Assembly: GCA_964016885.1 (NCBI GenBank)
Contig: OZ024741.1
Location: 123,132,001 to 123,196,000, forward strand
Direction of reading: 5' to 3'
DNA from: Eledone cirrhosa
Taxonomy: Eukaryota
DNA length: 64,000 nt
Shown: in pieces, positions 8,603-58,565 of the stretch
Numbering within the stretch: position 1 is the first letter of the stretch
How the letters are laid out: the number at the start of each line of letters is the position of its first letter
Notes under the pieces: generated by a model
Told to the model about the DNA's origin: nothing
Database searches by the model: none
Seen by the model: the letters and a program-made list of their open reading frames with translations, nothing else
Program-made: the position numbers and the translations under genes

Positions 8603-9350
8603 ATATCAACTAGAAATAGATTGACACATATATATATAAAATAAACATATGAAACAATCTCAGGGAATAATTTGTAAAGTGTGTAAGCACACACAGCTAG
8701 GTAGGTAACTAATTAAAGTTTAACTAGAACTTCAAATATAGATACCATTTAAAATGATTAATCTCATTTGTATATATTTCTTTAAATAAAAAATATATTT
8801 CATCAATTAACCAGTAAATCACAGCGGTCAAATCCTGATGGTCACCAAAGGAGAAGATCCAACATCTGGGTTTACACTGCAAATGCAAATCTGTGAATGA
8901 CTCGAACCACGTGTTGCATTTTATAAAAAAATACAGACATCAGTTGAATGGACTCGGCTGCTATTTCTAGCTGTCGATAATCCTATTCACGCCACTGGGA
9001 TGACTCGGTGCGATGTCTGTATTTTTTATAAAATGCAACACGTGGTTCGAGTCATTCACAGATTTGGATTTGCAGTGTAAACGCAGATAGTTGGAACTTC
9101 TCCTTTGGTGACCATCAGGATTTGACCGCTGTGATTTACTGGTTAAGTGATGAAATATATTTTTTATTTAAAGAGATATATACAAAAGAGATTACTCATT
9201 TTAAATGGTATCTAAATTTGAAGTTCTAGTTAAACGTAATTAGTTACCTACCTAGCTATGTGTGCTTACACACTTACAACAAATTATTCCCTGAGATTGT
9301 TTCATGTGTTTATTTCATATATATATGTGTCTATCTATTTCTAGTTGATA
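8603..9350. repeat. Long inverted repeat: arms about 8603-8941 and 9012-9350, 70 bp spacer
   Basis: Arms are reverse complements with scattered mismatches (e.g. CACAGCGGTCAAATCCTGATGGTCACCAAAGGAGAAG vs CTTCTCCTTTGGTGACCATCAGGATTTGACCGCTGTG). Lies between (TA)n tracts. Confidence 0.95.
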
Positions 9351-11204
9351 TATATATATATATAAATATATACATATACATATATATATATATATATATA
9401 TATATATATATATATATATATATATATATATATATATATTTATTTATATTTATTTATTAATATAAAAGATTAAAGTTTAAGCAAAGAATCGCTGCTTTCA
9501 CTTATCGAGCCCTCTTTGGATTTTAGTCTTCAAATTTATTATTATTACTATATATATATATATATATATATATATATATATATATATATATATATATATA
9601 TGTGTGTGTGTGTGTGTGTGAGTGTGTATGTATGTATGTGTGTGTGTGTTTGTGTGTGTATTCCTGATATGTATTGATATATAGATTTATATCACAATAC
9701 ATATATCTGTGAGAGGGAAAGTATTTTTTATGTGAATAGCAAATAATGGGATATTTTATTTGCATGCATTTATAAATATGCGTGTATAGCTATATATTTT
9801 GGCTGTTAAATATGCATTGATTCTCATTGTATTGATCCTACTTAAACGCATACATTCATACATAGACACCCCCTATCTACAAGAACACACATATATATGT
9901 GTTTGCGTGTATATTATATATGACAGTATATATATATATATATACATATATGTATATATATGTATGCATGTATGTATGTATATATATGTATATACACACA
10001 CACACACACATATATATATATATATATATTTATATATTTATATATATATTTATTTATATATATTTATATATATATATATATATTTACTAAAATAACATTA
10101 AAATAACGGATTTTAGTCTTCACATTTATTATTATTGCTATATATACAATATATGAGTGTGTGTTTGTGTATATATATATATATTTCTTTTCTATTGGTG
10201 TGTGTGTATGTATGCTAGTGTGCGAGTGTTTGTGTATATATGTTTTGCGAATGGGTAAGTGTTTATTTGTTTGCATCAGCTAATCCATACAAGCAAACAT
10301 TAAGCCACCTCCATATATACATTCATGCTACGCTAATACTTTCGCTGCCTCACATCAAATATTCAAACATATTTATTATCGTTTAACAAATGTATGTATG
10401 GGAAATGATAAACGTAACTAATACAATTTTTTAATGTACAAATATATCAAATATTTTCTAAAATACAATTTTTGATTATTTATATATCCTATTGTTTATT
10501 ATTTTTCTTAAAAACACACACAGAAACAATACTTTTCAAACAAAAATGTGATTTCACCAAAATAATTGTATTATTGTATTAGATCCGTAAGTGAATGCAT
10601 TTAGCTTATATTTTCATATATTTCCATAGAGAAATCTAAAAAAAAAAAAAAAGATTCTTGTGTACTCAATCTATGTTCCATGTTCTTGTTTATATTTTTA
10701 TATTGTGTATTTGTGTGTGAATTTGAGAATCTATGAGTGATTTGAAAACATATTAATGCTATTAAATATCCAAGGGTTTACATATGTAATTATTTAATTG
10801 TAAAATGTCTGGAATAAAATAAAATGAAATGAAATGTAAGTCTCAAATATATATGAAAACTTCAAATGAAAATAGTTACATTTCTGAATACATTGGAATA
10901 CATTTGAAAACACAATTATTTAAAATCTGTTTTCTTTTTATATATAGCGCTGACTGATTTTCTTTAAAGTTGTTTTATATAGGTAGAAAAGAACTAAAAC
11001 GAAAAAGAAACCCTGTAGATATGTTATATTATGTTTCATTATATATGCATTTCATTTCGTGACACACGTTACATAACATACACTAGTCTTTATTTTGAAA
11101 AGAAATACACACATAACTCATACTTTATAAATTGTATTTAGGAATTCTATAATGTTCGTTATGTTGTGTCTACTACAACAAAACAAGAACAAGAACAACC
11201 ACAT

Positions 11205-11848
11205 CTACTACTACTACTACTACTACTACTGTTGCTGCTGCTACTACTACTGCTACTGTTGCTGCTGCTACTAATTCTACTGTTGCTACTACTACTACTA
11301 CTACTACTACTACTACTACTACTACTACTACTACTACTACTACTACTACTACTGTTGCTGCTGCTGCTGCTACTACTACTTCTACTGTTGCTGCTGCTGC
11401 TGTTGCTACTACTACTATTGCTGCTGCTGATACTACTACTGCTACTGTTGCTGCTGCTGCTACTTCTTCTGCTGTTGCTACTACTACTACTACTACTACT
11501 ACTACTACTACTACTACTGTTGCTGATGCTGCTACTACTACTTCTACTGTTGCTGCTGCTGCTGTTGCTACTACTACTATTGCTGCTGCTGCTGCTACTT
11601 CTGCTGTTGCTACTACTACTACTACTACTACTACTACTACTACTACTACTACTACTACTACTACTGCTACTGTTGCTGCTGCTGCTACTTCTGCTGTTAC
11701 TACTACTACTACTACTACTACTACTACTACTACTACTACTACTACTACTACTACTACTACTACTACTACTACTACTACTACTACTACTGCTACTACTACT
11801 ACTACTATTAAGGCTATTTTTATTATTATTATTATTATTATCATTATT
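11205..11848. repeat. Compound trinucleotide repeat (CTA/CTG/TTG)n ending in (TTA)n
   Basis: Read directly. It gives the spurious poly-L and poly-V ORFs. Confidence 0.97.
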
Positions 11849-55670: not shown

Positions 55671-58426
55671 AAATATATATATATATTTATGTGTGTGTGT
55701 GAGTGTGCGTGTATTTGTGTTGGTGTGCGTACTCATGTAAGTATTCGTAACCTTTCTTTGAATTTCTCTTTATTAATTGGATCTAAGGATTTTATTATCT
55801 CGGTTATAAGTGAAGTGACCATATTTTCATATGAAATTAAGAGATCTGCATATGTTTAGCTAATTTTCCCATTTATAGCATTCATAAATATATATTCAGA
55901 AATAACAAAGTGTCTTTTCCGAAAGATTACCTAAATTGTACAGTTGAAAATGTATTTGCTTTTGGAAAAGCTGCAGAAGCTTCATGAAGACTTTTAATTT
56001 AATAATACTCATGTGACCGCTCATTCAAATCAAATTCAACTTCTTATTTCTTTTTCATTGTTGATTTGGTCACACATGTTGCTCAACGTGACCCCGTCTT
56101 TACTCTGATTGCAGGACGCGATATTACAAAACAGTCTGTATAAATCGGTAACATGTACCACAATTAAATTGCTTTATGACACCCGCCCACTCACCGGCCA
56201 CTGACCATTATGCATCTGGATGCTCTAGCAATGGTACAAAGCTAAATTCTACAAATAATAACAAATAATAACAAATAATAACTACATTATAGGCAGATAA
56301 ATTAGGAACCAGTTTATCTTCGTTCTAATATAAAAAATATCAGTCAGTTAAATGAATATCTAACACATTATATATATTTTCTTGGAAACTCTCAAATCAA
56401 TTGGTTTATTGAATTCAGAAATTCGCTATGATTCTTCACAACTGACATTTCGTTATCAACGTTTTTGCATTATTCTTCACTTACTATTCAATTATGTTAA
56501 TCCTTATTTTAGCAAACACTTCATAAAATCCTTTTTTAAAATTTCATTGACTCTTTTCTGGAAATAATGTACACAAACACGTTGCCCTCTCAAATGTTGT
56601 TGATCAGACAAAATATTTCATTAATCTATACTGTTATTATATGAATCCAGATAATCTTATGAGAAAATAGGTTTCAGCCAGAAGAAATTCATATTTTGAA
56701 GTACACACAATCATGTATATCGTAAAATGTAAACACAGCATCATTTAATATTTTAGAAGTGCTCTTTGCAATCATAAAGTCCCTTGCTCTGTACCATTAA
56801 ACAACATCTGAGACAAAAAGCATTTACTACGGCTGCAATTAACCCGCGCTTGTGAAAATATTAGCTAACGGCAAAATGTTTGGGAGCCCGTTTATTGAAG
56901 TGTAACTGAAATTAGAAGAGCCTGCCGTTTCAATCAATGTGTCCTGTTTAGCCATCTTGAGAACAGCGTGAAAACTACAGGTGTCAGTGTGATACCTAGG
57001 CCCTTTCCCGTAGTTCCATTGACTGACAGTCCAATGGGTCTTTGTATGTTGAAAACGGTGAAGTGAAATTTGAGGAAGATGAGATGTGGCTTTTATCTGT
57101 AGTATGACGGGCGAATAAATAATGGGTTAGTGTTTATGGTTGCAGTATAAATCGAGGCCAAATCATATATTTCTACTCCAGAAAAATCCAACAGCAAAAC
57201 AACCTTTGATTGCTTTTGGTGTGCTATGCTTTCCATTACGGGCCTGGTATTTTGCAATTTTAAAATGAGTCGCGTGTCTGAAAATATATAAGGACATTTT
57301 AAGAATTACTTGTTTGTATTATCGTGCTGTAAAATATATATAAAATATACTAACACATCCGAATCTTTTTGAACGCATTCAATCTTCCTTGAATGTTTTA
57401 TTGAACACCATCGGCAGGTTATCATGATAAGTATATTAATTTTTTTTTATATTTACCAAAGATGAAAATATAACGTTTTGAAATATGTGAAACCAGCTCA
57501 AGACATTTTTTCTCTAAACTTCAGGAAATTGCTTACTGTCAGTAATAAAAGATTTTAATAATAGGGGTGGATTTTGAATGGAATACTTAACAGAAATTCC
57601 GGACTGTTGCAAGCATATTCTACCAATATATCTGTATACAGCTTTAAATTACATCTACTGAATGTCTTCAATAAAAGATTAGTCGTCTGCTTCCTCTCAT
57701 TAATGGATAAATTTATGTTTTCTATTCATCTCATAAAATTTGTTGAATCCAGTTATTTTTTCTCGTTTCTTCTTCGATGTAAAAGATTAGAGTGTAGTAA
57801 AAATAAACAGTATACGTATTGTGGTCAAAAGTATGTGTAAGTACTATAAAACGGTAACATTATTTATCGTTCATCGGGACACATTTTCATTTTACGATCC
57901 ATTAAACTTAAAATAAAAAAATGTATATATTAAAGACTTACTTATGATTAAATATGCGACAAAAGACGTAAATTAATCAAATAAAAGAAAAATATTTCCT
58001 AATGAATCTAAACTAAATAATACCAACATAAAAAATAAATTAAATATATCTGACGCAATAAAAGTCGAAATAAAAATATATATAACAAGATTCCAAAGTC
58101 TAAATTCAGATGACCATAATAAATAAAATGTAAGATGAAAGGTTTTACAGAGATATATATCACCAAAAAATCGATAATTGTGCAGGTGAATCACGTATTG
58201 GTGGAATGTGGACAAACAGACATGCCCACATACACACTCATACGCATACATATGCTAACACACATTTATATATATATATATACTGTATATATATATATAT
58301 ATATATATATATACAGTATATATTGGTTATTAGAAAAACAAGGCACCTTAGTTGATATATATATATTGGTTATTAGAAAAACAAGGCACCTTAGGGTCAA
58401 AAATACATATATTGTTACTCAAGATT

Positions 58427-58565
58427 CTTTTACACGTGTTTCGATACATTACGTAACTTCCCGTCTGTGAAATCTGTACTATTATATAATAAATTATTTC
58501 CCACTGTTCTGATGCATATATTGTTTTCTAATACAGTATGTCAAAATGTTATCTCATGTAGAAAG
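58427..58565 (-). ncRNA. Decayed hammerhead-like motif with very long stem II loop
   Basis: Minus strand: CUUU-CUACAUGA-GAUAACAUU..(about 95 nt)..AAUGUAUC-GAAA-CACGUG-UA-AAAG. Tail duplicated at 58321-58351 / 58364-58394 next to (TA)n. Confidence 0.5.

Follow-up and report, generated by a model that had tools for sequence, protein, structure and literature searches.

The stretch of Eledone cirrhosa DNA analysed here (64,000 nucleotides; assembly GCA_964016885.1, contig OZ024741.1, positions 123,132,001 to 123,196,000 of the forward strand), hereafter the window, comes from a genome of 3.0 Gb and is rich in (TA)n microsatellites. Interspersed with these are copies of about eleven repeat families, A to K, many of which carry type I hammerhead ribozymes or altered versions of them. 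Two kinds can be told apart, the 5'-truncated ends of Penelope-like elements (families D, E, F, and K) and units of 317-585 bp without an open reading frame (ORF; families A, B, C, H, and G), and we put at roughly 0.8 the probability that both were written into (TA)n by the reverse transcriptase (RT) and endonuclease of Hydra-type Penelope-like elements. Families I and J were placed in neither the ORF-less nor the ORF-linked class.

The complete hammerheads of the window are well separated from chance. A strict type I descriptor built on a CUGANGA core finds three canonical motifs, at 12812-12855 (-), 19667-19709 (-), and 44040-44086 (+), whose cores start at 12850 (-), 19703 (-), and 44046 (+), whereas block-wise dinucleotide shuffling of the window, repeated 60 times, gives 0.017 on average and never as many as three. 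Extending the descriptor to the compensated U3-A8 core and to a long stem II adds the motifs at 45863 and 49592 (both on the minus strand, U3-A8 with long stem II, core starts 45951 and 49680), giving five matches where 40 shuffles of the window average 0.075 and never exceed one. The first-pass annotation of this DNA had called these five sites intact-looking and had named dinucleotide-shuffled sequence as the yardstick; all five are complete type I hammerheads, nearly absent from the shuffles. A background sample of 40 evenly spaced 10-kb stretches (400 kb) on seven large contigs contains nine descriptor matches, two of them being both strands of one palindromic site, and each of eight shuffles contains none; hammerheads occur across the genome, at a density that the window exceeds only modestly. 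A differently relaxed scan adds a canonical motif at 45593 (-) and, once a single core mismatch is tolerated, those at 18372 (-) and 50208 (-). The ten window matches obtained with one core mismatch, against a shuffle mean of 4.3 and a maximum of 9 in 15 shuffles, are not significant by themselves, and because relaxed searches alone were not significant, the degenerate sites were judged by family alignments.

Genome searches with each family (up to 40 matches scored and 15-20 loci fetched, best matches first) show the islands to be multi-copy, as had been anticipated, with 1056 candidates for A, 229 for B, 2250 for C, 1591 for D, 3122 for E, 1097 for G, 280 for H, 24 for I, 931 for J, and 1509 for K, all of them first-look candidates rather than copy numbers. 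Family F and a SINE-like (short interspersed element) control were instead counted in the evenly spaced stretches, where F has 12 copies in the 400-kb sample. Among copies matching a family pattern, the only ones taken into the core counts, B keeps CUGAYGA in 35/41, C keeps CUGAGGA in 19/20, H keeps UUGAUAA in 14/15, and J keeps CUGAUGA in 18/18, while the older family A keeps its core in 4/9; D retains its U3-A8 core in all 18 of 18. The altered cores are just as much family traits, CAGAAGA (U4A) being found in 12 of 13 F copies, CUCGA (a 2-nucleotide deletion) in 14 of 15 E copies, and CCGAAGA (U4C) in 8 of 10 K copies. Core, GAAA, UH, and stems I-III are all present in canonical form in A, B, C, and J and in U3-A8 form in D and H, and an intact core is missing from E, F, K, and the site at 8830.

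Read through these families, 13 of the 14 sites first listed as intact, decayed, or half hammerheads belong to repeats with a hammerhead or hammerhead-like motif. The exception is 8830, for which the label of decayed hammerhead has to be given up: its relatives read CC(C/T)GGATGG there, the CTGATG that suggested a core is peculiar to the window copy, and family G, to which it belongs, has no core. Decay is also the wrong description for 18327 and 52006 (and 9474), all members of F with its family-wide odd core, and for 43684, a family E copy whose motif really lies at 43734-43771 and whose CUCGA is likewise shared across the family. By contrast, 58427 is indeed a decayed copy, of the old family I, some relatives of which keep CUGAUGA, and 17635 is, as proposed, a half, namely the 3' half of family H, a family represented elsewhere by full U3-A8 hammerheads. 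The D family or a sister subfamily accounts for both 14305 and 49835, listed as decayed and half respectively, each being a 3' half. A palindromic loop III had been noted at 44040, where CAGAUAUCUG proves to be a variant of the window copy and most relatives have ACAGAGAUCUGU. Two motifs come in addition to the earlier list, a canonical core at 45536-45604 (-) and a U4C core at 50166-50212 (-).

The ORF-linked families have 3' untranslated regions (UTRs) of 1-1.6 kb that continue into endonuclease coding sequence, and because they run into Penelope RT/endonuclease coding sequence, the D, E, F, and K copies are evidently the 5'-truncated ends of autonomous-type elements. Family D is the most complete in the window. 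Its 3' terminal repeat (45851-46099, minus strand, with a U3-A8 hammerhead at 45863-45956) and its 5' terminal repeat (49500-49957, with a U3-A8 hammerhead at 49592-49685 on the minus strand and an inverted arm at 49835-49957) flank an ORF at 47238-49407 (-), disrupted once by a frameshift and once by an in-frame stop, whose translation reads as an RT followed by a C-terminal GIY-YIG domain. Pfam gives no match for this ORF, and a few of the 93 homologues found are annotated as GIY-YIG. Inspection by eye recovers LRWR (R for K), SDKTG, CNCPDRSSC, CNLC, and CKH, corresponding to the RWR, DKT, CxCx5C, CxxC, and CxH motifs, and by these published motifs the sequence suggests that family D is a Hydra-clade Penelope-like element. 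Most of its 40 best matches do not differ from the window copy at all (100% identity), and D is therefore very young. The 3' half and tail of a sister-subfamily terminal repeat lie at 14221-14346 (-).

Family F is represented by a 5'-truncated Penelope-like element at 18218-19476 (-), comprising the last ~40 endonuclease codons, a ~1-kb 3' UTR, and the U4A motif at 18327-18377, by a hammerhead-like 3' half with an inverted tail between (TA)n runs (9445-9547), and by a short 3' end fragment (51979-52060, minus strand); the continuation of its ~1-kb UTR into endonuclease codons is seen both in the window and in three other places (L018/L096, L152, and L162). The same UTR contains a 140-bp tandem duplication at 18457-18733, and similar duplications are present in the UTR of the element at L170/L177. 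The E pieces at 42826-43829 consist of 3' UTR fragments, an inverted tail, and the motif with the shortened core at 43734-43771 (+). Family K, which was not in the earlier note, contributes a further Penelope-like element, represented by its end and 3' UTR, at 49990-51213 (-), with its U4C motif at 50166-50212; at 14 other K loci, endonuclease sequence lies upstream in one and RT sequence downstream in two. The F, E, and K islands at 18218-19476, 42826-43829, and 49990-51213 each exceed 1 kb, and the size of 250-400 bp given for the islands does not hold in general. Other ORF-linked ends met by chance include one with a canonical core (L145), one with canonical letters and a poor stem I (L184), and several with altered cores (L002, L092, and L170/L177).

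Families A, B, C, and H have what characterises the non-LTR (non-long terminal repeat) retrozymes, namely short head-to-tail units, a type I hammerhead, and no ORF, and the longest ATG-initiated ORFs in the ORF-less units are 32-68 amino acids, none exceeding 68. The window holds an A island at 12652-12945 (-; unit 333 bp, minimal hammerhead 12812-12855, loop III UGCGCA), a B unit of ~427 bp at 19477-19833 (-; minimal hammerhead 19667-19709, loop III CUAG), one 317-bp C unit with a partial repeat and a short inverted arm at 43822-44255 (+; canonical hammerhead 44040-44086), and the 3' half of an H unit of ~585 bp at 17575-17667 (-), full copies of which carry a UUGAUAA core, a long stem II, and the loop III palindrome CUACGUAG. 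The B copy is one circularly permuted unit whose distal part, at 18073-18217 (-), has been split off by the F element, which inserted in one of the TA tracts internal to B; since the B unit contains such tracts, part of the (TA)n microsatellite is itself element-borne. At least two consecutive complete units are found for B, in an array of at least 13 ~430-bp units at L095, and for H, at L193, whereas A and C were seen as partial tandems only. Direct repeats occur at 7/18 B loci, repeats at 567-590 bp at 5/14 H loci (two of which are one pair), and a 317-bp repeat in the window and at 1/18 other C loci, with partial head-to-tail junctions at others; in A, the 333-bp repeat is seen at 1/9 anchored loci, and tail sequence precedes the core at four more. 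ORFs near the A, B, and C loci L030, L051, and L008 were considered as parents and rejected, the intervening (TA)n runs marking them as separate insertions.

Family G, whose ORF-less tandem unit of ~540 bp is present at 8511-9352 as a pair of opposed arms, stands apart in having no canonical hammerhead. It also occurs at L078 and L194 as well-folded ~540-bp units, with a possible hammerhead relic resembling that of D; a twister-P1 match in G (E 3.1, 16 bits against a gathering threshold of 67) was below threshold and not accepted. Family J, another family not previously noted, lies at 45474-45800 (-) with its canonical-core hammerhead at 45536-45604, and the decayed copy of family I, with a long stem II and loop III CACGUG, at 58353-58507 (-). 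Further hammerhead families were seen in the evenly spaced stretches at L152, L155, L156, L168, L169, L170, and L188, among them a 595-bp tandem pair related to H.

What joins the two kinds is the way in which they sit in the genome. In the 400-kb sample, 21/24 family copies have (TA)5 or longer at a distance of no more than 250 bp, compared with 18/64 SINE copies and 34% of random positions (Fisher p = 5e-7), some of these family copies being the two arms of one insertion. The adjacency to (TA)n that the first-pass annotation expected is thereby clear, and in family D, (TA)4 or longer follows 30 of 37 ends. Inverted arms are common among the copies, and the 3' ends of B, C, D, E, F, and H cluster mainly at two offsets past the cleavage site: about +17/+97 in D, +130/+166 in C, +210/+271 in B, +52/+140 in E, +75/+260 in H, and +27/+120 in F, which has a third cluster near +68. 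The two clustered 3' ends agree with the Penelope tail, which has been tied to two internal RT start sites (PMC11167929). At the modal ends, 7/9 have at least three bases of TA match to the target, compared with a 14% background, two B junction sites in internal TA tracts being left out of this count.

If the families are mobilised in this way, the endonuclease would nick (TA)n, and the RT would start copying from the nicked end, acting as primer, at either of two fixed positions inside the element, both lying past the hammerhead; pairing over a few TA bases would probably help. Copying would usually halt early, so that a short, hammerhead-bearing 3' end remains. The ORF-less units would likely be transcribed from tandem copies and cut by their own hammerheads, acting as dimers where stem III has one or two pairs, and the cleaved RNAs, possibly after closing into circles, would then likely be copied in trans in the manner of non-LTR retrozymes.

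Several points weigh against this reading. The case for trans-mobilisation is built on shared end structure, and no ORF-less family has been tied to a specific RT. The ORF-less status itself rests on 9-19 loci per family, and rare full-length parents are possible. On the ORF-linked side, the connection of E to endonuclease coding sequence is seen in only one of four extended loci (L190). The TA-match test was post hoc and covers few sites, and in vitro the Poseidon element PAc primes without target homology and has no need of hammerhead cleavage (PMC11167929), a result that also counts against the proposal. Predicted minimum-energy folds of A, B, C, and J do not contain the active conformation, and circular-fold z scores (B -6.2, C -5.4, G -5.2, H -3.3, and A -0.9, against +0.8 to -4.3 for control stretches) are weak evidence, with A at -0.9 and two control stretches also low (-3.0 and -4.3). 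Finally, G builds tandem units without any canonical hammerhead.

One alternative, which we regard as unlikely, is that all the islands are 5'-truncated terminal repeats of autonomous Penelope-like elements and that the tandem units are DNA-level duplications, satellites rather than RNA-mobilised units. Four of the families are indeed ORF-linked, most single minimal hammerheads have been ascribed to truncated elements (PMC4209133), local tandem amplification of a terminal repeat is allowed for (10.64898/2026.07.22.740005), and the B array at L095 has a higher-order repeat of about four units that suggests DNA-level expansion after insertion. However, past the cleavage site A, B, C, H, and G return to their own 5' part at many unlinked loci, often over 1.1-1.5 units, whereas D and K lead to an ORF; the circularly permuted single B unit of the window, and the (TA)n runs that set apart the ORFs at L030, L051, and L008, also speak against it. 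The proposal of the first-pass annotation, that the islands in general are small non-autonomous self-cleaving RNAs inserted into (TA)n by a Penelope-like enzyme, fits A, B, C, and H as ORF-less tandem units, and its Penelope-type insertion structure is borne out. As an account of all islands it is nonetheless highly improbable, since the UTRs of D, E, F, and K are contiguous with RT/endonuclease coding sequence, in conflict with the non-coding nature of non-LTR retrozymes, and 8830 is no hammerhead; its claim on much of the unique DNA was likewise too broad, the hand-summed shares of the 50-kb span being ~2.2 kb of ORF-less units, ~7.9 kb of ORF-linked pieces, and ~0.5 kb of I and J. That the motifs arose by chance in AT-rich DNA, as the many shuffle matches of relaxed descriptors and the lack of a hammerhead among the Rfam matches listed for the window (150 of 159, those listed being microsatellite-driven microRNA matches) or from Rfam on the family C island at 44040 might suggest, is refuted for the complete motifs by the near-zero shuffle counts of the strict descriptor and by the retention of the motif in families whose first-look candidates number in the hundreds to thousands, and can be dismissed.

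These families are new members of kinds that have already been described, and the system is not the hidden one it was thought to be: hammerheads in Penelope ends, retrozyme passengers, and (TA)n targeting are all published. Metazoan non-LTR retrozymes, which include a mussel family (PMC7229834) and are derived from Penelope elements (10.64898/2026.07.22.740005), likewise consist of GC-poor tandem units that span a few hundred bases, lack an ORF, and carry one type I hammerhead each, and they co-occur with Penelope-like elements, whose non-autonomous passengers they are proposed to be (PMC7229834; 10.64898/2026.07.22.740005). Unlike them, the units here are mostly dispersed inserts of 1-1.5 units at (TA)n with inverted arms, H combines a U3-A8 core with a long stem II, and cleavage and circles are putative. 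Hydra-clade Penelope-like elements, reported in molluscs, share the C-terminal GIY-YIG and the RW(K/R), DKT, CxCx5C, CxxC, and CxH motifs, as well as (TA)n insertion, partial tandems, and inverted 5'-truncated copies, but are described with canonical hammerheads throughout, whereas F, K, and E have family-wide core changes (PMC8557442). The minimal hammerheads of Penelope terminal repeats resemble those found here in having a stem-loop III that is short or palindromic, a long stem II, and U3-A8 covariants, and in forming thousands of single dispersed copies ascribed to truncated elements (PMC4209133); the family-fixed U4A, U4C, and 2-nucleotide core deletion have no counterpart in the available text of that paper. 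PAc shares two internal RT start sites giving a tail, AT-rich targets, and a hammerhead in the terminal repeat (PMC11167929), but its priming without target homology differs from the short TA match of most modal ends here. A literature search for hammerhead ribozymes in octopus and retrozymes in cephalopods returned no paper describing these families, and the word "ribozyme" is absent from the main text of an octopus repeat annotation (PMC13282606).

The remainder of the window has other repeats. LTR-retrotransposon-like gag/pol reading frames lie in several pieces at 201-3908 (-), with no Pfam match for the one frame scanned, and a broken LINE-like (long interspersed element) RT with a zf-RVT domain at 28702-30875 (+). 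Two ORFs at 37168-38668 (-), which have no Pfam match, presumably resemble a DNA-transposon protein. The SINE-like control family is found at 5290-5567, 21864-22052, 33130-33317, 35908-36050, 41387-41581, and elsewhere, with 64 matches in the 400-kb sample. A 600-bp compound (CTA/CTG)n array occupies 11205-11807, and a large TG/CA-rich inverted repeat at 54763-55670 is possibly another opposed-arm insertion.

The distribution of core changes between the two kinds may have biological meaning. Cores are altered in 3/4 of the ORF-linked window families (E, F, and K), and intact or compensated cores are found in 4/5 of the ORF-less families compared with 1/4 of the ORF-linked ones, G having none; these are too few to test, and the pattern of altered ORF-linked and mostly intact ORF-less families is suggestive, though the numbers are small. 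It is no strict rule, because G is ORF-less and yet without a core. One possible, though doubtful, explanation is a division of labour in which the autonomous Hydra-type elements, young and present in many copies, spread with cores that are crippled (U4A, U4C, or the 2-nucleotide deletion) and retain just the GAAA/stem III half, as a signal for pairing with RNA or docking of the RT, while ORF-less passengers keep working ribozymes to cut and circularise; priming would use short TA pairing, a few bases long, with the target. A viroid tolerates the U4C change despite its reduced activity in vitro (PMC3088659), and hammerhead activity is dispensable for the insertion of PAc (PMC11167929). Intact and altered cores occur in this genome as matched natural sets, with which one could ask what role the hammerhead has in Penelope-like elements. 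Hammerhead-bearing Penelope ends together with retrozymes make up a sizeable share of the genome, the 24 family copies in 400 kb scaling to the order of 10^5.

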